From: Alkalilimnicola ehrlichii MLHE-1
GTDB taxonomy: Bacteria > Pseudomonadota > Gammaproteobacteria > Nitrococcales > Halorhodospiraceae
Direction of reading: 5' to 3'
DNA length: 32,000 bases
NCBI RefSeq assembly: GCF_000014785.1
Contig: NC_008340.1
Location: 2,760,001-2,792,000, forward strand
Positions 1,584 through 20,582 of this stretch are shown piece after piece. Each line of letters starts with the position of its first letter. Position 1 is the first letter of the stretch. Position numbers and translations under genes: made by a program. The notes beneath the pieces are model-generated. The model was not told where the DNA came from. It did not search any database and saw only the letters and a list, made by a program, of their open reading frames with translations.

Positions 1584-3026
1584 TCACCGGGACTCCACCG
1601 GCAGGCAGCCCTGTGCGGCCAGGCGCAGGCAGGCGTCCACCACCTCCGGGTCGTAGAGCCTGCCGCGCTTGGCGCGCAGTTCGTCCAGCGCCGCGGCCAG
1701 CCCCAGGGCGGGCCGGTAGGGGCGGTGGGAGGAGATGGCCTCGACCACGTCGGCTACGGCCAGAATGCGTGCTTCCAGCAGGATGGCCTCCCCCCGCAGG
1801 CCGTCCGGGTAACCGGAGCCGTCCAGCCGCTCGTGGTGTTGGCGAATGATCTCCGCCACCGGCCAGGGGAACTCGATCCCCTTGATGATCTCGTAGCCGA
1901 CGGCCGGATGGGTCTTGATCATCTCGAACTCGAGGTCACTCAGCCGCCCCGGGCGCGAGAGGATCTCCACGGGGATGGCGACCTTGCCGATGTCGTGGAT
2001 GGCGCCGGCCACATGCAGCCCCTTGCGCCGCGCATCATCCAGGCCCAGTTCCTCGGCGATCACCTCGGCGATCTCGGTGGTGCGCTGCTGGTGGCCGGCG
2101 GTATAGGGATCGCGCACCTCGATGGTGGCGGCGATGGCCTCAATGGTGCGTTCCAGTGACTGCTCCAGCGCCTGCTGGGCCCGCTGACTCTCCGCGCGAT
2201 CCTGCTGGCTGCGGACGCCATAGGCCAGATCACCGGCCAACTCCATCAGCCGTGCCACCTCGTCGGGGTCGGCGAAGGGGGCGGGCCTCCGGCTCTCCAC
2301 CTGCAGGCAGCCCAAGTCGCCCCTGGCGTCCCGCAACGGCAGCAACAGCGTCCGGACACCAGCGTCCGAGGATGCCGGGGCCGGCAACCCCAGGCAGGGA
2401 GCGTCCGGCACCGCCACGTCCTCCGCCTCGGCGACCGGTGGGTAGCAGGGACCGCCGATGAGCATGATCAACGCCCTGGCATAGCCCCCCTTCCGCACCA
2501 GCACGTCATGCATATTGGCCAGCAGGTCGTCCAGGCCATCGGCATGCACCAGGGCCTGGTTGCCAGCGGACAGGGTGCGCAGGGCGCGGGTGCGCTCCGC
2601 CACTAGCGCCTCCAGTCGCTGCTGCGAGGCGTGCAGGGCCAGATGGCTCTGCACCCGCACCAGCACCTCCTCGGCGACGAAGGGCTTGGTGATGTAATCC
2701 ACCGCCCCCACCGCGAAGCCCCGGACCTTGTCGGCGGGCTCGCACAGGGCGCTGAGGAAGATCACGGGGATGTCGTGGCGGGCCGGATCGGCCTTGAGAC
2801 GACGGCAGACCTCGTAGCCGTCCAGGTCCGGCATGCGGATATCCAGCAGGATCAGGTCCGCGGGCCGGGCCTGCACCGAGTCCAACGCCAGCCGGCCGCT
2901 GGGCGCTACCCGGACAGCGTAGCCCCCCTCGCGTAACACGCTGACCATGAGCCGCAGGTTGGCGGGGTTGTCGTCCACCACCAGCACCTCGCCCGAGGCC
3001 TGCGGTTCCGGGGCCGTGGCACTCAT
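1584..3026 (-). CDS. Response regulator: REC, central GAF-like segment and HD-GYP c-di-GMP phosphodiesterase domain
   Basis: REC motifs [11 protein letters not shown] and [21 protein letters not shown] motifs HDIGKV and [14 protein letters not shown]. The ATG overlaps the kinase stop (ATGA at 3023-3026). Confidence 0.9.
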
Positions 3027-4912
3027 GCGCCGCCCCCACCGTTGAGCGCCGTGAGGATCTCCTGATAGCGGAAGGCCTGGACCTGGGCCCGCAGCGCCGG
3101 GGCCAGCACCGCGTCCTGCTCCCCGATGTCACGCACCAGGGCCTCCAGGGCATCCAGATCGCCGGCGCGGAGCGCCTGCGCCAGCGCCCGGCGCTGATCC
3201 GCCGGGAGGGCCTGCAGGCGCTGGCCGAAGTCCTCCGGGACGCGATCCGCCGGGTGAACCTCGGCCGGGGGCTCCGGCGTCCCCTCAGCGTAGCGGTAGT
3301 TCAAGCCCAGGTGCCGGCGCGGCGCCGGCTGGCGCTCCCGCTCCTCGTCCACTGCCGGCACCAGTGGCAGGCTCACCGTGAACCGGGAACCCTCGCCGGA
3401 GGTGCTCTCCAGGCCAATCTCCCCGCCCATCAGCTCGACGAACTCGCGGGTGATGGGCAGCCCAAGGCCGGTGCCCTCGGTGGTGCCCACCCGGCCGCTC
3501 TGCACGAAGGGCTCGAAGACCCGGTCCTGGTCCTCCACAGGGATCCCGCGACCGGTGTCGGCGACCGCCAGCAGCAGGCCATCGTGACCCCCGCTCGGCT
3601 CCGCGGACTGGCGCCGGGCGCTGAGCACGACCCGGCCGGCGTCGGTGTACTTGACCGCGTTGCTGACCAAGTTGATAAGGATCTGGCGCAGTTTGCGGCC
3701 GTCGCTGAGGATGTGGCGCGGCAGGTCCTCCGCCACCTCCAGGGTCAGGGTCAGGCCCTTGCCCTCCGCCCGGTGGCGCAGGGCCTCCACCGCATCCTCG
3801 AGCGTGCGCGGCAGGTCCACCACGCCCTCCTCCAGGGTCTGGCGTCCGGACTCGATCTTGGCCATGTCCAGGACATCGTTGATCAGCGACAGCAGGTGCT
3901 CGCCGTTGCGCTCCACGAAACCGAGCTGTTCGCGCTGGTCTGGGGTGGCCTGCGGGGCCTGTCCCGCCAGGCGGGCGAAGCCGAGAATGGCGTTGAGCGG
4001 CGTGCGCAGTTCGTGGCTCATGTTGGCCAGGAAGACGCTCTTGGCGCGGTTGGCCTCTTCGGCCGACTGACGCGCCTGCTCCAGTTCGGCGGTCCGCTCC
4101 CGCACCCGCTGCTCCAGGCCTTCGTTCAGTCGTTGGATCTCCCGCGTGGCCGCGTGCTGGAAGCGGGCATCACGCAGCACCCGTTGGCCGCTGTACCCCA
4201 GCCCCAGCAGGCCGAGCAGCCAGATGCCGGCGAAGGCGCCCAGGGTCCGGCCCATGGCCACCTCCTCGTGCGCCTGATAGCCGGACAGGGGCACGGCCAC
4301 CGAGACCCCACCGCGGATGTCCCCCACCTGATAGCCCTGGTGGGCATGGCACTGGAGGCACCCCCGGTCGGTCTCCATGGGGGCCATATAGCGCAGGTAG
4401 GGTTCCTGCTCGATGTAGGCCACCTCCAGGCGTTCGTCGACCCCGTCCTCGAAGGCCTCCAGGGCATCGCGCTCCCAGTCGTCGGGGGCGTTCTCGGGCC
4501 GCAGCGGATCGAGGCTGGTGATGTTGCCGCGCACGCCGAAGAGATCGCCGAACTGCTCGTTGAGCTGGCGCAGCATGTAGGCGGGGTTCATCAGGGTCAG
4601 CTCCTGACCGCCGGGGGTGGTGATATCCCGTTCGGGCAGATGGGCCAGGTAGGGGTTGCGCGGGGTCTGGTCACTGACCGGCACATAGACACCGCCGTGC
4701 AGGGTGCCCCAGAAGCGGAAGGCCTGGTCCTTGTTGAAGTTGGCCCGGGCCTCCTGGTAGGCCAGCTCCACGGTCAGGCCCTGGAAGTGCCCCACCAGCC
4801 ACCAGGACAGGCCACCAAAGGTGGCCGTCCAGCCCGCCAGCGCCAGCACCAGGTACAGACGCAGCCGGCGGATGCGGCGATCAGCGCCTTCGCGGGTGGC
4901 CGGGGCAGGCAT
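3023..4912 (-). CDS. Sensor histidine kinase with periplasmic DUF3365-type (c-type heme CxxCH) sensor domain
   Basis: N-terminal TM helix, then a periplasmic segment ...[22 protein letters not shown]...RGGVSVAVP, then a second TM helix. H-box SHELRTPLN; ATPase boxes [18 protein letters not shown] and GTGLGL. About 110 extra C-terminal residues of unknown type. Confidence 0.85.
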
Positions 4913-4947
4913 TAGGGCGTTCCATCCCGTTTGCGGTGTCTATCCCT

Positions 4948-4956
4948 ATTCTAGCA
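4948..4956 (-). promoter_or_regulatory. Candidate extended -10 promoter (TGcTAGAAT) for the kinase/HD-GYP operon
   Basis: The minus strand reads ccTTGCTAGAATagg about 36 nt upstream of the kinase ATG (4912). The hexamer matches TATAAT at 5/6 and carries the TGn extension. No good -35 element. Confidence 0.3.
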
Positions 4957-4982
4957 AGGGGTTTTTGCGGCGGATACCGGGG

Positions 4983-5297
4983 TCACTCCTCCGTGCGAAG
5001 CGCACCACAGTTCCAGCAGGCGTCAAACTGTCCGCCCAGGGTCTCGCCGCACCGCGGGCAGGTCCAGTCGGGCCCGGGATCGGCCTCGCGGGCCTTGAGC
5101 TCCTGCAGCAGGGTCCGTGCGCGCTGCTCATCCTCGTCGGCCACCCAGATCTCCGGCCAAACCTCGTTCACCGGCAGCTCGCCGGCCCCGCCGCCAAGAA
5201 ATTCGTTACGCAGTTGGCAGGGGATGCCGGCGTCCTCCAGCGCCTGGCGGTAGCGCTCCACCAGCATCCGGTTCTCAACACTGAAGACCCGCTTCAT
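4983..5297 (-). CDS. DUF2007-type small protein (putative signal-transducing fold) with C-terminal CxxC...CxxC zinc ribbon
   Basis: MKRVFSVENRMLVERYRQALEDAGIPCQL...CPRCGETLGGQFDACWNCG. ATG at 5297 overlaps the upstream MAPEG stop (ATGA 5294-5297). The longer ORF start at 5393 was rejected. Confidence 0.7.
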   Translation of the reverse strand: MKRVFSVENRMLVERYRQALEDAGIPCQLRNEFLGGGAGELPVNEVWPEIWVADEDEQRARTLLQELKAREADPGPDWTCPRCGETLGGQFDACWNCGALRTEE

Positions 5298-5680
5298 CCG
5301 GCCACCCCCGCGGCGATGAACAGCCCCAGGATGCAGGCAAAGGCCGCCATCCAGACCAGGCTGCGCAGGCCAGGGCGGTCGCCGATATAGCATAGGCCGT
5401 AGAGCAATCGCAGGAGAATGAAGAGGACCGCCAGGGTGTCCACGGCACCCTGGGCGGCACCCACCTGGTGGGCGATGATCACCGCGGCGGCGAAGGGCGG
5501 AAAGGCCTCGAACTGGTTCTGCTGGGCCCAGTTGGCCCGCTGGCGCCAGCCCTCCAGCGCCGCCAGGTAGGCGCGGGGCGTGCGGTTATCGAACCCCGGC
5601 CCGCCGCCGAATTTGGCCGCACCGGCAAAGACAAACGGCAGCAGCGCCGCCGCCAGGACCATCCAGTAGCCAAGGGTCAT
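5294..5680 (-). CDS. MAPEG-family small membrane protein
   Basis: 128 aa with 3-4 hydrophobic helices. The segments RANWAQQNQFEAFPPFAAAVII and LLRLLYGLCYIGD are typical of the bacterial MAPEG family. Confidence 0.7.
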   Translation of the reverse strand: MTLGYWMVLAAALLPFVFAGAAKFGGGPGFDNRTPRAYLAALEGWRQRANWAQQNQFEAFPPFAAAVIIAHQVGAAQGAVDTLAVLFILLRLLYGLCYIGDRPGLRSLVWMAAFACILGLFIAAGVAG

Positions 5681-5733
5681 CGGGCCTCCTCCCGCGACGG
5701 GTGCCGACGGCGATGCGACCGCCGGCGCCCGGA

Positions 5734-6618
5734 TCAGCGCCTGCGGACCGGGATGTGGTCCGCCCTGATGCTGACGGTATCACCTTCGCGCCGCTGGGGC
5801 AGGCCCTCGCTGGCCCAGGCGTGGCCGTAGACCACCTCCCAACTGGCGGGGATGCGGCCGTCCGGCCCCCGGTAGGCCGCCTCGTAGGCCTGGCACATGG
5901 CCTGCAGCCGGCGCCGGGTGGTGAGACCACGGCCCCGTCCGCTTGCGGCGTTACGCGCCCCCAGGCCGCGCAGGTCGTGCAGCACCCCCATGGGGTCCCC
6001 GTAAGTCAGGGTGAACGACTCCATGTCCATCACCGGGTCGGCGAAGCGGGCCTGCACCAGGGCGTCCCCCACGTCGTGCATATCGATAAATTCGTGCACA
6101 TGGGGCTTGTCATCCACCTGCGCCCAGGCCGCGCGCAGCTCCTTCAGCGTGTCCGGGCCAAAGCTGGAGAACATCAGCAGCCCGCCGGGCCGCAGGACCC
6201 GCTGGAACTCGGCGAAGACCCGGTGCAGGTCCGGCATCCACTGCAGGGCGAGGTTGGAGAACACCATATCGACGCTCTCCGCAGCCAGCGGCAGGCGCTC
6301 GGCGTCGCCGCAGAGGGTGCGGATCGGCCGTAGCCAGCGGCCCCGGCGCCGGGTGGCCCGGAGCATGCTGGGGGCATGGTCCAGGCCAATCACCCGCGCC
6401 TTGCGGTAGTGATCCTGCAGTGCCCGGGTGCAGAAGCCGGTGCCACAGCCCACATCGACGATGATCGCGGGCTGCATCAGGATGACGTGCAGGCGCTCCA
6501 TCAACCGCTCGCCGACTTCCCGTTGGAGTACGGCGACCTGGTCATAGCTGTCGGCGGCCCGGTGGAAGTTACGGCGGACCTGGCGCTTGTCGAGAGGGGT
6601 TCGAGTCATGGTCGGCAT
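5734..6618 (-). CDS. bioC: Malonyl-ACP O-methyltransferase BioC
   Basis: SAM-binding VDVGCGTGF, BioC-like N-terminus KRQVRRNFHRAADSYDQVAVLQREV, and position in the bio operon. ATG at 6618 (MPTMTRT). The 556-aa ORF extension upstream runs through bioH in another frame. Confidence 0.9.
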   Translation of the reverse strand: MPTMTRTPLDKRQVRRNFHRAADSYDQVAVLQREVGERLMERLHVILMQPAIIVDVGCGTGFCTRALQDHYRKARVIGLDHAPSMLRATRRRGRWLRPIRTLCGDAERLPLAAESVDMVFSNLALQWMPDLHRVFAEFQRVLRPGGLLMFSSFGPDTLKELRAAWAQVDDKPHVHEFIDMHDVGDALVQARFADPVMDMESFTLTYGDPMGVLHDLRGLGARNAASGRGRGLTTRRRLQAMCQAYEAAYRGPDGRIPASWEVVYGHAWASEGLPQRREGDTVSIRADHIPVRRR

Positions 6619-7367
6619 TGCTGACTGAGGAGGTGAAGGTGACCGGCAACCCACTCGGGGTGGGTCAGGAACGGCAGATGGCCGGCCTCGGGATGATACG
6701 CCATCCGCGCCCGGGGCATCGCCCGGGCGGCCTCTTTGGCGGCACCGTCGGGGACAAGCGGATCGCGACCACCGGCAAGCCAGGTGGTCGGGCGGTCGAT
6801 GGCGGCCAGCCGGCCGCGCAGGTCGGTGTCGCGCAGCAGGCTCAGGCCCGGCTCCAGGGCCGTCGCCGGACCGGGGCCACGGCGCCGCCACGGGCGCAGC
6901 GCCTCGCGGTCCCCGGCCCCCGCCCGGCCCAACAGGGCGTGGAAGCCACGGAGGGTCCGGCGCGCGTCCTCCGCCAGCCCTCCGATCATGGCATCCAGCT
7001 CCTCCCGGAGCAGGCCGTAAGGCCAACCGTCCCGTTGGCAGAAGCAGGGGGTGGCGGCGAGGAGCAGCAGCGCTCGGGGTCGCGCGCCCCGGGCAGCGGC
7101 GGCCAGCAGCGGCAGGGCCCCCAGCGACCAGCCCACCCAGATGGCGTCCTCGGGGACCGCCAGGCGGACGGCGTCGGCCCAAGCCTCCAGGCCGGCATCC
7201 GCTGGCAGTGGCGCGCTCCCACCATGCCCCGGCAGGTCCGTTCGGGTGACCCGCCAACGCTGCGTCAGGCGGGGCAGCCAGGGGTCGAAGACCCGGTGGT
7301 CGAAGCCCCAGCCGTGAACCAGCACCAGGCCCTCCGGGCCCCGCCCTTCGGTGACCGCACGCATCAT
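6606..7367 (-). CDS. bioH: Pimeloyl-ACP methyl ester carboxylesterase BioH (alpha/beta hydrolase)
   Basis: LVLVHGWGF, nucleophile elbow GWSLG, and C-terminal GHLPFLTHP. The start overlaps the bioF stop (ATGA 7364-7367). Confidence 0.85.
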   Translation of the reverse strand: MMRAVTEGRGPEGLVLVHGWGFDHRVFDPWLPRLTQRWRVTRTDLPGHGGSAPLPADAGLEAWADAVRLAVPEDAIWVGWSLGALPLLAAAARGARPRALLLLAATPCFCQRDGWPYGLLREELDAMIGGLAEDARRTLRGFHALLGRAGAGDREALRPWRRRGPGPATALEPGLSLLRDTDLRGRLAAIDRPTTWLAGGRDPLVPDGAAKEAARAMPRARMAYHPEAGHLPFLTHPEWVAGHLHLLSQQCRP

Positions 7368-8539
7368 TGGCCCAGGACCTGTCCCAGCGCAGCCACCAGG
7401 CCATCCACCTGCTGGGGCGTGTGGGCGGCGCTGAGGGTGACGCGCAGGCGGGCGGTGCCCTTGGGGACAGTGGGGGGCCGGATGGCGGTGACCAGGTAGC
7501 CGCGCTCCTCCAGCGCGCGGCTGGCCTGTAACGCCTGATCGGCCTCGCCCACCACGATCGGCTGGATAGGGGTCTCGGAGGGCATCAGATCCAGTCCCAA
7601 GTCGGCGATGCCCGCCCGGAAGCGCCGGACCAGGGCGCGCAGGTGTTCGCGCCGCCAGGTTTCGTGGCGGGCCAGGCGCACCGCCTCGACGGTGGCAGCG
7701 GTCTGGGCCGGGGACGGCGCGGTGGTGTAGATCCAGGTGCGCGCGGATTGGACCAGGTGGTCGATCAGGAGCCGGCGGCCGGCAACGAAGGCGCCGAAGC
7801 TGCCCACGGCCTTGCCCAGGGTACCGACCAGCACGGGCACATCGTCCTGATCCAGTCCGCTCTGTTCCAACAGCCCGCCGCCCTTCTCGCCCAGTACCCC
7901 CAGGCCATGGGCGTCGTCCACCATGAGCCAGGCACCGTGGTCCCGTGCCAGGCGGGCCAGCTCCGCCACCGGGGCGCGGTCGCCGTCCATGCTGAAGACA
8001 CCATCGGTGACGATCAGCCGGTGCCGCCCGCCATCCTCCGCGAGCCGCCGGGCCAGGTGGTCCACATCACCATGGCGGTAGCGGCGCAGCCGGGCGCCCG
8101 ACAGCCGGGCACCGTCCAGCAGCGAGGCGTGGTTAAGGCGGTCCTCGAACACGGTATCGCCGCGGCCCACGAGGGCGTCGATGACGCCGAGGTTGGCCAT
8201 GTATCCGGTGGAGAAGAGCAGTGCGGCCTCGCGGCCGGTCCAGTCGGCCAGGGCCCGTTCCAGCGCTTCGTGCTCCGGGCGGTGGCCACTGACCAGATGG
8301 GCGGCGCCGCTACCGGCACCCTGCTCTTCGGCCACCCGGGCCATGACCCGGCCGGGACGCGGATCGCTGGCCAGCCCGAGGTAGTCGTTGGCGCAGAAGA
8401 CGACGACGGTCCGGCCGTCGGCGGTGAGACCGCAGGCCCCGTCGACGCTCTTGAGCACGCGCGGGCTGCGGTAAAGCCCCTCCGCCCGGCGGGCGGCCAG
8501 GCCCTCGGACAGCATCCGGCTCAGGGCGCCGGCGTTCAT
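7364..8539 (-). CDS. bioF: 8-amino-7-oxononanoate synthase BioF
   Basis: PLP class-II aminotransferase layout with [10 protein letters not shown] and the lysine motif [12 protein letters not shown]. The start overlaps the bioB stop (ATGA 8536-8539). Confidence 0.92.
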
Positions 8540-9531
8540 CCCAGGTCCTCGGCCTCGGCCTGGGCGCAGGCGTGCGCCTCAAACCCCATGCCCAGACGGG
8601 CCAGCAGGCGGCGGTCCTTGTCGGCCTCCGGGTTGCCGGTGGTGAGCAGCTTGTCGCCGTAGAAGATGCTGTTGGCGCCGGCCAGGAAGCAGAGGGCCTG
8701 CAGTTCGTCGGACATCTGCTCGCGGCCGGCGGAGAGGCGGACGTAGCTGGCCGGCATGAGGATGCGGGCGACGGCGATGGTGCGGACGAATTCGAAGGGG
8801 TCGGGGGGCTCGACGCCGTGCAGCGGGGTGCCGGGGACCTGGACGAGCTGGTTGATGGGGACGCTCTGCGGCTGCACCGGCAGGCTGGCCAGGGTACGCA
8901 GCAGTTCGGCGCGGTCCTGGCGGGTTTCGCCCATGCCGATGATGCCGCCGCAGCAGGTCTTGAGGCCGGCGTCGCGCACCCGGGCGAGGGTGTCGAGGCG
9001 GTCCTGGTAGCTGCGGGTGGTGATGATTTCGTCGTAGTAGTCCTCGGAGGTGTCGAGGTTGTGGTTGTAGTAGTCGAGCCCGGCCTCGCGCAGGCGTTCG
9101 GCCTGGCCGTCGCGGAGCATGCCGAGGGTGAGGCAGGTCTCGAGGCCCAGGGCCTTGACCTCGCGCACCATGGCCTCGACGGTCTCCAGGTCGCGGTCTT
9201 TGGGCGAGCGCCAGGCGGCGCCCATACAGAAGCGGGTAGCACCGGCGTCCCGGGCCCGGCGGGCGGCCGCCACCACCTCTTCCACGGCCAGGATTTGCTC
9301 GCGTTCCAGGCCGGTGTCGTAGCGCACGCTCTGGGGGCAGTATTTGCAGTCCTCCGGGCAGGCGCCGGTCTTGATGCTGAGCAGGGTGCTGACCTGGACG
9401 GTGTTGGGGTCGAAGTGGGCCCGGTGGGTGGTCTGGGCTTGGTGGAGCAGGTCGTTGAAGGGCTGCTCGAACAGGGCCAGGACTTCGTCTTTAGACCAGT
9501 CGTGGCGGGGTGTTTGGGTTGTGGCGGTCAT
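8536..9531 (-). CDS. bioB: Biotin synthase BioB (radical SAM)
   Basis: [22 protein letters not shown] and [11 protein letters not shown] at 9531 (MTATTQ) gives an E. coli-like length; an in-frame alternative ATG lies at 9549. The ORF-track start at 9765 runs through a repeat element. Confidence 0.93.
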
Positions 9532-9572: not shown

Positions 9573-9770
9573 TTGGCTTGAGGGGGCGGGCGCGGTTTCG
9601 GTCGGGCCGACTTTTGCGCACCGAGCAACGCAACAAAATGTCGGAGAAAAGGCGCGCCTGTCCGAGCGAAGCGAGTTCGCGCCGCCGACATTTTGTGAGT
9701 AGCGCAGGGAACCCCGAAGGGGTGCGCAATCGGAGGCCCGACCGAAACCGCGCCCGCCCCCTCAAGCCAA
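9573..9770 (+). repeat. Nested-palindrome element, copy A (36-bp perfect outer arms 9573-9608 / 9735-9770 around a 126-nt conserved core)
   Basis: I checked the arms base by base as exact reverse complements. The core GACTTTTGCGCACC...GGTGCGCAATCGGA is shared with copies B and C. Its internal 12-bp stem is ACAAAATGTCGG/CCGACATTTTGT. Confidence 0.9.
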
Positions 9771-12183: not shown

Positions 12184-12397
12184 TGTGGTCTGGCGGGGCG
12201 GAGCAGGGGCGGATGGTCGGTCAGGCCGACTTTTGCGCACCGAGCAACGCAGCGAAAGAGCGGAAAAAAGGCGCGCCTGTCCGAGCGAAGCGAGTTCGCG
12301 CCGCCGCTCTTTCGCGAGTAGCGCAGGGAACCCCGAAGGGGTGCGCAATCGGAGGCCTGACCGACCATCCGCCCCTGCTCCGCCCCGCCAGACCACA
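12184..12397 (+). repeat. Nested-palindrome element, copy B (44-bp perfect outer arms 12184-12227 / 12354-12397, 126-nt core)
   Basis: The arms are exact reverse complements, extendable to 48 bp with one mismatch. The core is identical to copy A except the internal stem pair GCGAAAGAGCGG/CCGCTCTTTCGC and one A/G. Confidence 0.9.
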
Positions 12398-14569: not shown

Positions 14570-14783
14570 GGGCGGCCGTGCCCGGTCTGCTCGGGGTCAT
14601 CATCGCTGGGGCCTCCGATTGCGCACCCCTTCGGGGTTCCCTGCGCTACTCGCGAAAGAGCGGCGGCGCGAACTCGCTTCGCTCGGACAGGCGCGCCTTG
14701 TTTCCGCTCTTTCGCTGCGTTGCTCGGTGCGCAAAAGTCGGCCCCAGCGATGATGACCCCGAGCAGACCGGGCACGGCCGCCC
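14570..14783 (-). repeat. Nested-palindrome element, copy C (44-bp perfect outer arms 14570-14613 / 14740-14783, 126-nt core, inverted relative to A and B)
   Basis: The reverse complement of 14614-14739 equals the copy B core with a single A-to-C change. The outer arm sequence is unrelated to B apart from the core-proximal GGCC. Confidence 0.9.
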
Positions 14784-15213: not shown

Positions 15214-17406
15214 TCAATTGCCCCGGCGCCGGGTGATGCGCTGGACCGGGCGGGTCACGCGCAACCGGCGCATGATATTGGCCAGGTGCCGGCGATCACG
15301 CACGCTGAGCGTGAAACGCACGGTGGAGATCATGGCATCGCGCTCATCGATGACCACGTTGTCGATGTTGCCCTCGGCGTCGGCAATGGTGCTGGCCAGG
15401 GTCGCGAGCACACCGCGCTCATTGACCACATCCACCGCGATAACCGTGGGGAAGACACCCGCCACCTCCGGCTCCCACTGCACGTCGATCCACTTGTCGG
15501 CCTGCTTGCGCGAGGCGACCACGTTGCGGCAATCGCGGTGGTGCACCACCACCCCGCGCCCGGAGCTGGCGAAGCCGACAATCGGGTCTCCGGGGATGGG
15601 CCGGCAACACTTGCCAAAGGTCACGACGGTGCCCTCGGTACCGCGGATACTGAGCTGCTGGCGGTCGGCCTGGTGCGGCGCCGGATGTTCCTTCCCCTCC
15701 TCGGTCACCTCCTGAGCCACGCCAGCCAGCTTCTGCGCCACCACCCAGGGCACCCGACGGCCGAGGCCGACGGCGCGCAAAAGGCTGGGCAGGTCGGGCT
15801 CGCCCAACGCCCTGGCCCGCTCGCGGATATCGTCCGCGGGCAGATCGTCCAGCGCGAGGGAAAGGGTGCTGAGGGCCCGGTCAAGCATGCGCCGCCCCAA
15901 GTCCTCGGCCTCGTGGTCCTTGAGCTTCTTGAGCGAATGACGGATGGCGGCGCGGGCCTTGGCGGTGACCACGAAATCCAGCCACACCGGGTTGGGCCGG
16001 CCCACAGGGGCGGTGATGACCTCCACCATCTGGCCGGTCTGCAGCGGGGTGCGCAGCGGCGTGAGGCGGTGATCCACCTTGGCGGCGATGCAGGCGTTGC
16101 CGACATCGGAGTGCACCGCATAGGCGAAATCCACCGGGGTGGCGCCGCTGGGCAGTTCCATGATCTCGCCCTTGGGGGTAAAGACGTAGATCTCGTCCGG
16201 GAGCAGGTCGATCTTGACGTTCTCGATGAACTCCAGGGAGTTACCGGCCGTCTCCTGGATCTCCAGCAACCCTTTGACCCACTCCCGTGCCCGCACCTGG
16301 GCCGTATTGCCGGCATTGCCCTCGGACTTGTAGAGCCAGTGGGCGGCGATACCCGATTCCGCCACCTGATCCATCTCCCAGGTGCGGACCTGCACCTCCA
16401 GGCGGATGCGATGAGGGCCGATCAGGGTCGTGTGCAGGGATTGGTAGCCGTTGGCCTTGGGGATGGCGATGTAGTCTTTGACGCGACCGGGGCGGGGTTT
16501 GTACAGGCCGTGCAGGACCCCGAGCATGCGGTAACAGTCGTCCACCGATTCCACCAATACCCGGAACCCGTAGACATCAAAGACATCACGGAAGTTGAGC
16601 CCCTTGGTCTGCATCTTCTGGTAGATGCTCCAGAGGTGCTTCTCCCGGCCGGAGACCTGGCCCTGGATGGCCGCCTCGGCCATCCGGCCCTCGATGACCT
16701 CGCAGACCTTGTCGATGATCTCGCCCCGGTGACCGCGCTGACGACGCAGTTTCTCCTTGAGAACCCGATAGCGCAGCGGGTAGAGCGCGGCAAAGCCCAG
16801 GTCCTCCAGTTCGACGCGGACGGTATTGATGCCCAGGCGCTGGGCGATGGGGGCGTAGATCTCGAGGGTCTCGCGGGCGATCCGGCGGCGCTTGTGGGGC
16901 GCCATCACCCAGATGGTGCGCATGTTGTGCAGTCGGTCGGCCAGTTTAATCAGGATGACCCGGATGTCCCGGGCCATGGCCAGCACCATCTTGCGGAAGT
17001 TCTCGGCCTGGGCCTCAGCCTTGGACTTGAAGTCGATCTGGGTGAGTTTGGATACCCCGTCCACCAGTTCGGCAACGTCGTCGCCGAACTGGCTGCGCAA
17101 CTGCTCCTTGGCGGTGGGGGTGTCCTCGATGACGTCGTGGAGGATGGCGGCGACAATGCTGTCGCCGTCCATGCGCATCTCGGCGAGGATGCGCGCCACT
17201 GCCAGCGGGTGGGTAATGTAGGGTTCGCCGGACAGCCGACGCTGGCCGGCATGGGCCTCGGCACCGAAACGATAGGCCTCGTAGACCTGCTGAACCTGTT
17301 TGGGTTCTAGATAGGTCTCCAGCAGGGAGCACAGCTCGCTGGCCCGGCGGGCCGGTTCGCGGCTCAGGCGCTGTTCATGCGGGGACAAGGCCTCGGCGCG
17401 ACCCAT
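15214..17406 (-). CDS. spoT: Bifunctional (p)ppGpp synthetase/hydrolase SpoT
   Basis: HD hydrolase motif HDVIEDT, synthetase region YQSLHTT...EVQVRT, TGS segment [27 protein letters not shown], and a C-terminal ACT domain. ATG at 17406 was chosen. Confidence 0.93.
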
Positions 17407-17419
17407 ACATGCGCCGTCC

Positions 17420-17743
17420 TCAGCCGTCCTGGCCGGGCGTCTTTGGCGCGTCACCCTCGCCCTGGCCGGCGTCGGCGTTGCCCTTGGCCGCTTCCTCTTC
17501 CATCAGGGCGCTGGCCTCGGCCTCGAAATCCAACACGGGCTCGGGCTGCTCCTCGAGGATCTCGCGGCCAACGTGGCCGTCGGCGATCTCGCGCAGGGCG
17601 ACGACGGTGGGCTTGTCATTGTCCCAATCCACATGGGCCTCGGCGCCATTAGCCAGTTGGCGGGCGCGCTTGGACCCGACCAGCACTAGCTGGAAGCGGT
17701 TGTCCATATTGGTGAGGCAGTCCTCAACGGTAACTCGGGCCAT
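17420..17743 (-). CDS. rpoZ: RNA polymerase omega subunit
   Basis: [10 protein letters not shown]...[16 protein letters not shown]; GGAGG lies 8 nt upstream of the ATG. Confidence 0.95.
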
Positions 17744-17791
17744 CGGCCAACCTCCGGGTAAAGGTGAGTCAAGGGGTTGTCTGTTAGTTCA

Positions 17792-17820
17792 ATTCTATAG
17801 ACTTGCGGTCGGGACATAAA
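17792..17820 (-). promoter_or_regulatory. Candidate rpoZ promoter (-10 TAGAAT, weak -35 TTTATG)
   Basis: The minus strand reads TTTATG-N17-TAGAAT in the only AT-rich patch between the repeat array and rpoZ. Confidence 0.3.
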
Positions 17821-17869
17821 GGACGTTGCACTGCAACGTGACAAACCAGTCAGAGCAGCGCACCAATCC

Positions 17870-18350
17870 GGGGCAGTGACGGGGGAGTCACCCCGCCGAT
17901 CTTGCCTGCCCCACTCCCCGCCGCGCGGGCCGACGGCTTTCTCCCCGTCGTCGCGAGGGCCGAAGGCTTTCCCCGTCGTCGCGAGGGCCGCAGGCCCGTG
18001 GCGATCCAGGCGGTGGACTGCCACGTCGGCTTCGCCTCCTCGCAGTGACGAGGGGGCCCCTCCCCCGTCATCGCGAGGGCCGAAGGCCCGTGGCGATCCA
18101 GGCGGTGGACTGCCACGTCGGCTTCGCCTCCTCGCAGTGACGAGGGGGCCCCTCCCCCGTCATCGCGAGGGCCGAAGGCCCGTGGCGATCCAGGCGGTGG
18201 ACTGCCGCGTCGGCTTCGCCTCCTCGCAGTGACGAGGGGCCCCTCCCCCGTCATCGCGAGGGCCGAAGGCCCGTGGCGATCCAGGCGGTGGACTGCCGCG
18301 TCGGCTTCGCCTCCTCGCAGTGACGAGGGGGCCCCTTCGCAGTGACGGTG
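17870..18350. repeat. Array 1 of GC-rich quasi-palindromic units (about 4.3 tandem copies, period 91-92 bp)
   Basis: The unit GTCATCGCGAGGGCCGAAGGCCCGTGGCGATCCAGGCGGTGGACTGCC(A/G)CGTCGGCTTCGCCTCCTCGCAGTGACGAGGGGGCCCCTCCCCC starts at 17975, 18067, 18159 and 18250. Confidence 0.9.
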
Positions 18351-18372
18351 GGGGCGGGCTCGCGCTTTCCCA

Positions 18373-19017
<645 letters not shown>

Positions 19018-19044: not shown

Positions 19045-19300
19045 CAGCGTCATCGCGAGCCCCCCGCCCCGCTGCGCGGGCCCGAATCAACGAGGAACGG
19101 GGCACCCCCGGTCATCGCGAGGGCCGAAGGCCCGTGGCGATCCAGGGCGGTAGACTGCCACGTCGCTGCGCTCCTCGCAGTGACGGTGGGGATGGGTCCG
19201 CTCCCGCAGTGACGGCGGGGGCAGGCCCGCTCCTCGCAGTGGCGGTGGAGACGAGCCCGCGCCCTGCAGTGACGGGGCGGCACCGCCTGCGCCGTGGCGC
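19045..19300. repeat. Array 2 of the same family: one full unit (about 19110-19185) followed by four ~30-bp half-unit repeats
   Basis: GTCATCGCGAGGGCCGAAGGCCCGTGGCGATCC...CTCCTCGCAGTGACGG. The half-units C(T)CC(T)CGCAGTG(A/G)CGG start at about 19171, 19201, 19230 and 19262. Confidence 0.85.
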
Positions 19301-19309
19301 CCGGGCGCG

Positions 19310-20176
19310 TTATTCGATGTTCTGGACCTGTTCCCGCATCTGTTCAATCAGCACCTTCATCTCAACCGCGGCGCGGGTGGTCTCGGTGTCGTTGGACTTG
19401 GAGGACAGGGTGTTGGCCTCGCGGTTGAATTCCTGCATCAGGAAGTCCAACCGGCGGCCGATGGGTTCGCGGCGCTTTAGGGCGTCTTCCAGTTCGGCGC
19501 AGTGGGCCTGGAGCCGCTCCAGTTCCTCGTCCACGTCCAGCTTCTGGGCGATAATGGCCAGCTCCTGCTCCAGGCGCCCCTCGTCCGCCTCCACATCGAG
19601 GCTCTCCAGGCGGGTGAGGAACTTCTCCCGCACCCGGTCGTTGACCTGTTCCCGTTGCGCCCTGACCTGGTCCACCAGCTCGCTGAGCCGGGCCGAGCGG
19701 TCGCGCAGGATGCGCGCCAGGCGCTCACCCTCGCGCTCGCGGGCGGCCTCGAAACCGTCCAGGCAGTGATCGAGCAGCGCCAATGCGGCGTTGGCCACCG
19801 GCTCCAGGTCGGGGTCGCTCTCCTGCAGCACCCCGGGGATACGCAGCAGGTCCAGGCCGGTGGCGGCCGGATCGGCCCCCACGCGCTGGCCCAGGGCGCG
19901 GGCGGCCTCGATCACCTGGTCGGCGTAAGCCTCGTCGATGAGCAACCGGCCGCGGTAGTCGGCGGCGGGTTTGAACCGCAGGGTGCACTCCACCTTGCCG
20001 CGGCCCAGGCGGGCCCCGATGCGTTCGCGCACGGCCGGCTCCAGGTGGCGCAGCTCCTCGGGAAGGCGCGGTTGCACATCCAGGTAGCGGTGGTTTACCG
20101 AGCGCAGCTCCCAGCTGATGCGGCCCCACTCGGCCTGGTGCTGCTGTCGGTCGAAGGCGGTCATGCTGCGGGTCAT
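19310..20176 (-). CDS. yicC: YicC-family stress-induced endoribonuclease
   Basis: MTRSMTAF (E. coli YicC begins MIRSMTAY), SVNHRYLD, and C-terminal LDFLMQEFNREANTLSSKS...MREQVQNIE. Confidence 0.9.
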   Translation of the reverse strand: MTRSMTAFDRQQHQAEWGRISWELRSVNHRYLDVQPRLPEELRHLEPAVRERIGARLGRGKVECTLRFKPAADYRGRLLIDEAYADQVIEAARALGQRVGADPAATGLDLLRIPGVLQESDPDLEPVANAALALLDHCLDGFEAAREREGERLARILRDRSARLSELVDQVRAQREQVNDRVREKFLTRLESLDVEADEGRLEQELAIIAQKLDVDEELERLQAHCAELEDALKRREPIGRRLDFLMQEFNREANTLSSKSNDTETTRAAVEMKVLIEQMREQVQNIE

Positions 20177-20239
20177 GGCGGGCACCGTCGTTGATTCGGA
20201 AAGCGGGCATTCTAACAGGCCGGCTGTTTGTCGTTGTAA

Positions 20240-20500
20240 CCGCCCGCTGCGCGGGCCCATCATCGCGAGGGCCGGAGGCCCGTGGCGATCCAGGCGGTAG
20301 ACTGCCGCGTCGGCTTCGCCTCCTCGCAGTGACGGTGGGGGCAACACCCCCGTCATCGCGAGGGCCGGAGGCCCGTGGCGATCCATAGCGGTGGACTGCC
20401 GCGTCGCTGCGCTCCTCGCAGTGACGGTGGGGGCGAGGTTCGTCCCGCGGTGACGGTGGGGCGGCGCCGCGCCTTGCGGTGGGGGTGGGTCCGCGTCGCG
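20240..20500. repeat. Array 3 of the same family: two full units (about 20259-20335 and 20352-20428) followed by degenerate half-units
   Basis: Same unit and orientation as arrays 1 and 2. It is preceded by CCGCTGCGCGGGCCC, as is array 2. Confidence 0.85.
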
Positions 20501-20582
20501 TCGTGGCTCCCGGCAAGCCCGGCGCCCGGTTCGCCTGTGTTAACCTTCCGCCCCATCGCAAACCCGCAACAGGGAGTCATTC

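Follow-up and report, generated by a model that had tools for sequence, protein, structure and literature searches.

The window analysed here, 32,000 nt of Alkalilimnicola ehrlichii MLHE-1 (NC_008340.1, forward-strand positions 2,760,001-2,792,000; positions below are relative to this window unless another locus is named), carries a tandem array of hairpin-forming units in the gap between gmk and rpoZ. We conclude with good confidence that this array consists of four tandem, non-autonomous copies of a pair of CGTC-tagged repetitive extragenic palindromes (REPs), or Ssn-related motif, with a partner nuclease of the Ssn family encoded in the genome. Because the element is dispersed and pan-bacterial and the same genome encodes Ssn, the array is a fast-evolving, essentially ordinary repeat cluster and not an operon-specific device. 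New are a hairpin architecture that lies outside both the published CGTC families and the published Ssn motif pattern, a very wide distribution, and copy-number polymorphism between strains.

Head-to-head hairpin dimers form a tandem array between gmk and rpoZ

Tandem Repeats Finder places an array with a period of 92, 4.0 copies and 98% matches at 17971-18336 (score 697), in line with the four copies of 91-92 bp described in an earlier note on this DNA. Counted from CGTC to GACG, each full unit measures 77 nt and is a head-to-head dimer of CGTC-tagged REP / Ssn-related-motif hairpins. The units occupy 17974-18050, 18066-18142, 18158-18234 and 18249-18325, each starting one position below the previously given starts of 17975, 18067, 18159 and 18250, which thus hold. 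Their arms read CGTCATCGCGAGG and CCTCGCAGTGACG, and inside the units lie ATCGC...GCGAT, GGCC-GAA-GGCC and GGC-TTC-GCC. The arms, inner helices and palindromic linker quoted earlier were all found in the sequence, and both arm patterns lie far above chance (0 expected from 100 shuffles). Unit 1 has the copy-specific variants CGTCGTCGC and GCCGCAGGC, unit 3 has CCGCG in place of the CCACG of units 1 and 2, and the A/G variants are ordered A, A, G, G along the array. The units are joined by three linkers of AGGGGGCCCCTCCCC (18051-18065, 18143-18157 and 18235-18248), the third one G shorter.

Truncated copies lie at both edges. Two truncated left monomers (17919-17973, plus strand; pattern match at 17946-17968) retain the CGTC tag, the 5' stem half, the mini-hairpin and TTTC(TC)CCC at a period of 28-30 nt, and Tandem Repeats Finder reports this partial-unit repeat at 17922-17995 with 2.5 copies. 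At the opposite edge, a truncated extra right arm, CTTCGCAGTGACGGTGGGGG (18331-18355, plus strand), belongs to a right-arm partial repeat with a period of 22 nt (18309-18355, Tandem Repeats Finder).

The monomer is the covarying unit

The 92-nt unit plus linker folds as a long hairpin on both strands, as RNA (-56.5 and -58.2 kcal/mol; z -4.0 and -4.5) and as DNA (z -3.5 and -4.4), which confirms the description of the units as hairpin-forming quasi-palindromes. Each half of the unit is a monomer of ~35 nt. Its 5' CGTC is unpaired and is followed by a basal stem of 5 bp, in which A-YY-GC pairs with GC-RR-T; beyond an internal loop (GA / GWG), a distal stem of 4-5 bp carries a GNA triloop, and the 3' end is a CCA tail. 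The left monomer of unit 2 (18066-18100, plus strand) reads CGTC / ATCGC / GAG / GGCC-GAA-GGCC / CGTG / GCGAT / CCA and folds as DNA into ....(((((..(((((...)))))...)))))... at -9.1 kcal/mol (z -1.9). Its right partner (18106-18142, minus strand) reads CGTC / ACTGC / GAGGA / GGC-GAA-GCC / GACGTG / GCAGT / CCA, with a CT..AG basal stem, and its DNA fold reaches -6.1 kcal/mol (z -0.5).

Covariation was analysed in two sets, 470 distinct monomers from at least 10 phyla and 133 gap-free 33-nt monomers, the latter against the structure ...(((((..(((((...)))))...)))))... In 86% of the 470 monomers, the outer-arm YY is complementary to the RR just before the TCC tail, with counts of 224 for TT/AA, 104 for TC/GA, 69 for CT/AG and 8 for TG/CA; the mismatched TC/AG and CT/GA were found 2 times each. 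Across the 133 monomers, 88.3% of cells are paired, compared with 75.5% in column shuffles, and double-change cells number 158 versus 38, values that 0 of 500 shuffles reach; controls with a slid structure all collapse. The distal stem likewise varies with compensation (GGCC/GGCC, GCGC/GCGC, CCCC/GGGG, CCGC/GCGG and others) or has tandem G.A/A.G instead, and its loops are mostly GNA triloops. Among DNA mini-hairpins, C-GNA-G triloops of the d(GCGAAGC) type stand out for their stability. As judged from sequence comparison, the selected unit is the half-element, or monomer, rather than the long hairpin: the basal stem covaries within the monomer and not between the members of a pair.

In the window unit, a monomer of TC type (ATCGC..GCGAT) is joined to one of CT type (ACTGC..GCAGT), each internally complementary, and this explains the T.G and C.A positions of the long hairpin, which are constant across copies. 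The same two non-Watson-Crick positions are therefore present in every copy, as the earlier note had claimed, but they are not a feature of one long hairpin.

Other identities were considered for the unit. A tRNA-like cloverleaf was rejected (0 genes by ARAGORN), as was a CRISPR array: the linkers are 14-15 nt long and identical between units, and in Limnohabitans the intervening DNA consists of repeated arm fragments. Rfam returned 0 matches to the unit, both at the gathering threshold and at E<=1.

The element resembles CGTC-tagged REPs but has a two-tier stem

REPs have been divided by their tag, GTAG or CGTC, into two superfamilies (Di Nocera, De Gregorio & Rocco 2013, BMC Genomics 14:522; PMC3733652). 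CGTC REPs carry an unpaired CGTC (or TGTC/CCTC), stems whose positions 1 and 2 are complementary A/T residues, and a CCA tail; they form mainly head-to-head dimers and occur in many phyla. The survey reports that CGTC repeats flank no tyrosine transposase gene, and it suggests that the CGTC families may be heading for extinction (PMC3733652). The window element shares the unpaired tag, the A:T first pair, the CCA tail, and dimers that can also fold as one large hairpin, along with the heterodimeric composition, intergenic sites, presence in many phyla and lack of an adjoining tyrosine transposase.

In the window, five of seven left monomers begin with CGTC and the other two with GGTC and CATC, and all seven right monomers read CGTC on the minus strand; CGTC is unpaired in the monomer folds. 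The first stem pair is A:T in 133 of 133 monomers, and the second depends on the type: it is T:A in TT and TC monomers and C:G in CT monomers, the type of the right monomer in every window unit. The tail appears as GCGAT-CCA and GCAGT-CCA, with a C following the stem in all 133 monomers although the extraction pattern also allowed T.

The differences lie in stem design and arrangement. CGTC-1 to CGTC-4 are described with a continuous 8-9-bp stem and a 4-5-nt loop, whereas the window monomer has 5 bp, an internal loop, 4-5 bp and a 3-nt GNA loop; judged by the text descriptions of these families, its architecture fits none of the four. Clusters are rare for CGTC repeats according to the same source, whereas A. 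ehrlichii shows several tandem arrays. For Thioalkalivibrio, the sister group of Alkalilimnicola, the survey catalogues GTAG families only.

A GIY-YIG nuclease gene of the Ssn family is linked to the element

The Ssn nucleases are single-domain GIY-YIG proteins of the cd10448 type (Chenal et al. 2025, Nat Commun 16:2388; PMC11893778). They bind the Neisseria NTS hairpin CGTCATTCCCGCGMAVGCGGGAATCYRG and related motifs on one strand only, and only when the DNA is single-stranded; SsnA (~94 amino acids) cuts a few nucleotides upstream of the motif and does not bind RNA (PMC11893778). Motifs typically lie on the flanks of ssn genes, in a layout like that of an insertion sequence; transformation of N. 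meningitidis is restricted by the system, and mutation of Y6, Y17, E64 abolished the activity of SsnA (PMC11893778).

Partner genes of the hairpin element were sought as open reading frames (ORFs) between two nearby elements, with the size limit lowered below 100 amino acids, and a recurrent ORF of ~95 amino acids was turned into a profile. Exactly seven ORFs in 2.21 Mb of loci, selected by the DNA element alone, match this profile, and all seven fall within 0.86% of that sequence, namely the 330-520-bp gaps between element arms, with elements on both sides. All seven are GIY-YIG proteins by Pfam; relatives of P0013, which is annotated as 'GIY-YIG nuclease family protein [Alkalilimnicola ehrlichii MLHE-1]', match Pfam GIY-YIG at 1e-11 to 1e-15. 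Several of them are nested exactly in a split dimer, in the order left monomer, gene, right monomer. Ssn genes are statistically linked to this element class. The nested arrangement is confirmed by viral loci selected by protein: canonical motifs lie within 400 bp in 15 of 25 and on both sides in 11 of the 25, typically at -59 (plus strand) and +20 (minus strand), and six of the 25 carry the window-type hairpin class. Clustering of neighbouring genes at a limit of at least 100 amino acids recovered only genes of gene transfer agents and phage structural genes, which the viral-contig sample typically contains; the 95-amino-acid nuclease was missed. Ssn homologues were also seen nested between other hairpin types in five viral contigs (L302, L304, L308, L315 and L320; for example CGTCATGGCCGGGCTCGGCCCGGCCATCCA, GTCACCCGGCCTTGAGCCGGGGTCCA and TGTCATCCCAGCGAAAGCTGGGACCCA), which suggests many enzyme/hairpin pairs with different stems.

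A homologue search with one flanked ORF returned 5,292 homologues. One of them, P0013 (95 amino acids), is 76% identical to the element-flanked query ORF and 48-63% identical to proteins nested between canonical motifs, and its gene is also present in A. ehrlichii strain SGAR-12, ~170 kb from the array there. In an alignment of 15 homologues, Y7, Y18 and E65 are invariant and correspond to Y6, Y17 and E64 of N. meningitidis SsnA. Downstream of the P0013 stop codon, a monomer follows after ~20 nt in inward orientation, then arm fragments and two full dimers that belong to the window unit's sequence family and depart from it only around the central loop. NCBIfam holds no specific model for the nuclease, and the PDB returned only a distant UPF0213 structure (1ZG2, E=0.002).

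The resemblance to NTS and Ssn-related motifs extends to a directional hairpin with a conserved GTC upstream and C downstream of the palindrome, to hundreds of intergenic copies (by extrapolation in A. ehrlichii) clustered around genes, to a flanked or nested GIY-YIG gene of ~95 amino acids, and to the catalytic Tyr, Tyr and Glu retained by the A. ehrlichii homologue. The differences are that the published search pattern misses the window monomers and that the A. ehrlichii ssn is motif-flanked on one side only. The role of Ssn in transformation is a Neisseria feature, and the A. ehrlichii homologue is not known to have one.

The identity of the flanked gene bears on a classical origin as REP doublets forming hairpins (REPINs) or bacterial interspersed mosaic elements (BIMEs), in which the hairpins would be mobilised by a REP-associated tyrosine transposase (RAYT), a Y1 HUH enzyme of IS200/IS605 type, as in E. 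coli and Pseudomonas. Such an origin would account for inverted REP pairs that form larger hairpins, for tandem clusters between genes, for copy numbers that vary by strain and for truncated copies, and Chenal et al. themselves point to this parallel (PMC11893778). E. coli BIME-2 and Pseudomonas REPINs share with the window array the tandem inverted REP pairs, the short linkers, the strain-variable copies and the truncated edge copies. They combine a GTAG tag with a HUH Y1 transposase, however, whereas A. ehrlichii combines CGTC, not GTAG (GT[AG]G), with a GIY-YIG protein, and the gene actually flanked by the elements encodes the nuclease. A phmmer search with E. coli RayT as query, run on 5,405 ORFs (100 amino acids or more) from 230 element-bearing loci, gave no match at E<=10, and the absence of a tyrosine transposase gene between CGTC repeats, reported in PMC3733652, points the same way. 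Membership in BIME-2/REPIN was thus rejected on the CGTC tag and on the 230 loci without a RayT homologue, and mobilisation by a RAYT appears extremely improbable.

The dimers are dispersed in A. ehrlichii and turn over between strains

Copy counts for A. ehrlichii cover 52 kb, made up of the 32-kb window and an unrelated 20-kb locus, L296, of strain SGAR-12 (CP184336.1, 2095980-2116267; a genome announcement assigns this accession, which also encodes RpoZ, to the strain). The window holds seven full dimers spread over three intergenic regions, three of them beyond gmk-rpoZ. In the gmk-yicC intergenic region, a second cluster (19049-19275) comprises a lone left arm (19049-19060), a full dimer (19110-19185) and ~3.6 copies of a 30-nt right-arm fragment (19169-19275). 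The third cluster (20258-20455), in the divergent yicC/rph intergenic region, has two dimers (20258-20334 and 20351-20426) joined by GTGGGGGCAACACCCC, plus a right-arm fragment. L296 adds nine full units, distributed over four intergenic clusters; one cluster is a second tandem array of 4.0 copies with a 95-bp period. Every one of the 16 full copies from A. ehrlichii is a head-to-head dimer in intergenic DNA. They are present in both orientations relative to the flanking genes, and the units at 17974-18325, the L296 dimers beside ssn and the L296 array differ by only a few bases. The 16 full units in 52 kb, a partly biased sample, suggest by extrapolation a copy number in the hundreds.

The idea that the unit is special to the gmk-rpoZ junction is therefore not borne out, given its presence in other intergenic regions of the window, in L296 and in relatives from at least 10 phyla. 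The earlier note had itself named 'an ordinary REP/BIME-like family' as the outcome that would refute its reading, and this is essentially what was found.

The window is 98.8-99.5% identical to SGAR-12, with 99.3% identity in the DNA flanking the array, and over 3.3 kb it agrees at 100% with a contig from an assembly of run SRR9436228. The gmk-rpoZ gap of SGAR-12 measures 1,025 nt and holds 8.0 units and 3.6 partial units, against 4.0 units and 2.5 partial units in the window, and in the SGAR-12 array an A/G difference alternates from unit to unit. The comparison of copy number among strains that had been proposed thus reveals a difference of 4.0 versus 8.0, and the rapid turnover expected from near-identical copies, which had been ascribed to recent amplification or homogenisation, is confirmed. 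The near-identity of copies within and between loci likewise implies that spread or homogenisation was recent. Array growth is most simply explained by slipped-strand mispairing or by unequal recombination between direct repeats of 92 bp, and an enzyme may instead drive it. The two sequenced strains, with 4 and 8 units, provide a natural system for the Ssn-dependence of array instability.

These same data bear on a reading in which the hairpins are inert relics, fossils without an acting enzyme, with the GIY-YIG gene domesticated or unrelated and the array a slippage-driven minisatellite. Slippage alone would account for 4 versus 8 copies, and the extinction suggested for CGTC families (PMC3733652) would agree with it, as would the A. 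ehrlichii ssn, which has no 5' flanking hairpin and therefore is not in a mobile-element configuration. The near-identical copies within and between loci and the intact Ssn ORF with its invariant catalytic residues argue otherwise, and we regard relics of this kind as unlikely.

Short-read (Logan) contigs of A. ehrlichii end at the first unit beside rpoZ and ~50 nt after ssn (L002 1-60; L297-L300, 3' ends). As element clusters are systematic contig breakpoints, copy numbers from short reads are untrustworthy.

In L296, a Wadjet/Jet-like four-gene operon at 2119-8738 (DUF3375, MksE/JetB, SbcC-like, JetD_C) is bracketed by hairpin clusters, the four-copy array upstream (1603-1975) and a dimer cluster downstream (~8900-9100), followed by tauE and ssn. 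This layout resembles the motif-gene-motif configuration discussed for Neisseria.

A proposed route from ssn-bearing element to array

By analogy with N. meningitidis SsnA, the A. ehrlichii enzyme would bind a monomer only as single-stranded DNA and only where the strand reads CGTC...CCA. It would nick this strand a few nucleotides 5' of CGTC, which places the cuts in the linkers at either outer side of a dimer. The dimers appear to be internal-deletion derivatives of a hairpin-ssn-hairpin element, similar to miniature inverted-repeat transposable elements (MITEs), and have spread into many intergenic regions. At gmk-rpoZ, the 92-bp unit plus linker has been amplified, and its copy number keeps shifting. 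The data show the anatomy, the covariation, the dispersal, the strain difference and the presence, adjacency and statistical linkage of ssn; we infer cutting of these sites by the A. ehrlichii enzyme, mobilisation of the dimers, the mode of array growth and any influence on the expression of gmk or rpoZ.

Several observations weigh against an Ssn-related element of this kind. The published motif pattern, HGTCWYN(0-2)YYVSBRHN(0-5)WNVSBRGN(0-2)RNCYNB, has 0 matches on either strand of the 32-kb window, although it does match the canonical NTS; since it finds nothing there, recognition of the window hairpins by Ssn is an extrapolation from association, as is Ssn action on the window hairpin class in general or by the A. 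ehrlichii enzyme. No monomer lies directly 5' of the A. ehrlichii ssn, where the tauE gene abuts, and elements occur 3' only. No transposition event, with an empty and a filled site, was observed among the loci compared, and the abundance of the element in A. ehrlichii rests on 52 kb of sequence. Naked single-stranded DNA favours a single long hairpin per dimer (-25 kcal/mol, z -4.0) over the monomer hairpins (-9.1 and -6.1 kcal/mol), and templated repair within the hairpin, besides selection, can also produce covariation in palindromic DNA.

The missing pattern match also places the window hairpin class outside the motif space surveyed so far. The link between Ssn and hairpins reported in 2025 is thereby extended to a structurally different class that the published pattern misses, and surveys of Ssn-related motifs probably undercount entire lineages, among them Alkalilimnicola, Thioalkalivibrio, Limnohabitans, Acidobacteriota and Bacteroidota. 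A bolder proposal, which we think rather unlikely, is that the two-tier CGTC hairpin is an unrecognised pan-bacterial class of Ssn substrates, that the dimers are MITE-like deletion derivatives of an autonomous hairpin-ssn-hairpin element, that Ssn mobilises DNA, and that arrays and fragments are footprints of repeated insertion and not of simple slippage. If true, Ssn would be a GIY-YIG enzyme with a transposase-like role, one not yet shown for the GIY-YIG fold in bacteria.

Relatives of the element occur in at least 10 phyla

The window-specific arm combination matched 119 genome stretches in Beta-, Gamma- and Alphaproteobacteria, Acidobacteriota, Bacteroidota, Chloroflexota, Spirochaetota, Gemmatimonadota, Verrucomicrobiota and Myxococcota; in all, relatives of the element are found in at least 10 phyla. 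This genome-collection scan did not return A. ehrlichii, and two contigs of Thioalkalivibrio metagenome-assembled genomes are the relatives among its matches. The arm-only pattern GTCAYYGCGAG...CTCGCRRTGAC matched 111 stretches in a viral-contig collection, and the left half alone matched 62 metagenome stretches, several with contig names that point to soda-lake and saline samples. In Limnohabitans contigs, tandem full units are interleaved with repeated arm fragments, like the partial copies at the edges of the window array. A blastn search of a plasmid collection gave two weak Novosphingobium matches without annotation, and a literature search for the arm sequence (GTCATTGCGAG / CTCGCAATGAC) gave unrelated primer matches only. 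Many element-bearing 'viral' contigs (L003-L113) encode portal, capsid, tail tape and host-specificity genes like those of gene transfer agents; they are probably alphaproteobacterial gene-transfer-agent clusters or prophages with hairpins in intergenic spacers.

Gene context and possible effects on transcripts

Pfam identifies gmk, rpoZ and spoT, all on the minus strand, where the gene order is recG, spoT, rpoZ, array, gmk and yicC; rph, rdgB and hemW follow on the plus strand. The guanylate kinase gene gmk (18373-18984, minus strand; Guanylate_kin 2.7e-56) corresponds to a 203-amino-acid gene in SGAR-12. The gene for the omega subunit of RNA polymerase, rpoZ, lies at 17420-17743 (minus strand; RNA_pol_Rpb6), the spoT/relA-type (p)ppGpp synthetase/hydrolase gene at 15214-17406 (minus strand; HD_4, RelA_SpoT, TGS and ACT; 730 amino acids in SGAR-12) and yicC at 19310-20176 (minus strand). 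The gap from the gmk stop to the rpoZ start spans 17744-18372, or 629 nt, in agreement with the ~630 nt estimated before.

E. coli REPs are known to affect mRNA stability and read-through. The array might accordingly be a transcript-level device selected at gmk-rpoZ, with hairpins that stabilise the 3' end, attenuate or process the transcript, and a promoter of its own for rpoZ-spoT. The minus-strand unit RNA folds at -58 kcal/mol, the repeat block begins 17 nt past the gmk stop, and 178 nt of unique, less GC-rich DNA containing TAGAAT separate it from rpoZ, all of which would suit such a device. The unit is found, however, in a divergent intergenic region and in both orientations to genes, it has no Rfam match even at E<=1, and the promoter and terminator scan of the region found no signal above chance. 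The TAGAAT hexamer proposed as a -10 element upstream of rpoZ exists at 17792-17797 (minus strand; ATTCTA on the plus strand), but the scan calls no sigma-70 site there. SsnA does not bind RNA (PMC11893778), and the difference of 4 versus 8 copies between strains argues against a tuned device. A device selected at this junction is thus quite improbable. Transcript effects may still arise as a by-product of an Ssn-related repeat cluster: the RNA hairpins could plausibly lead to read-through, protect 3' ends or cause attenuation on the side. The uncoupling of rpoZ-spoT from gmk by the array, as put forward earlier, is a proposal. A weak terminator-like 7-bp hairpin, ACGTTGCAGTGCAACGT followed by CCTTTATGTC, lies at 17823-17839 (minus strand), between the array and the putative rpoZ promoter; shuffled sequence contains at least as many such sites as the region does.

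Another intergenic repeat family, unrelated to the first, was seen at 9590-9760 (plus strand), 12205-12375 (plus strand) and 14595-14760 (minus strand). Its conserved core of ~125 nt folds as a single long hairpin (DNA, -65.5 kcal/mol, z -8.3), and the outer ~20 nt vary by copy while each remains self-complementary, as if the core sat within different palindromes.

The arrays not only break short-read assemblies but also generate spurious ORFs. The repeat clusters seed a 274-amino-acid ORF at 17850-18674 (minus strand) and another at 19725-20561 (minus strand), and they give yicC an artificial N-terminal extension of 70 amino acids (ORF 19310-20386, minus strand). Translated, the element yields sequences (for example ...SLRGGEADAAVHRLDRHGPSALAMTG...) of the sort that enter databases as 'hypothetical proteins' through such repeats.

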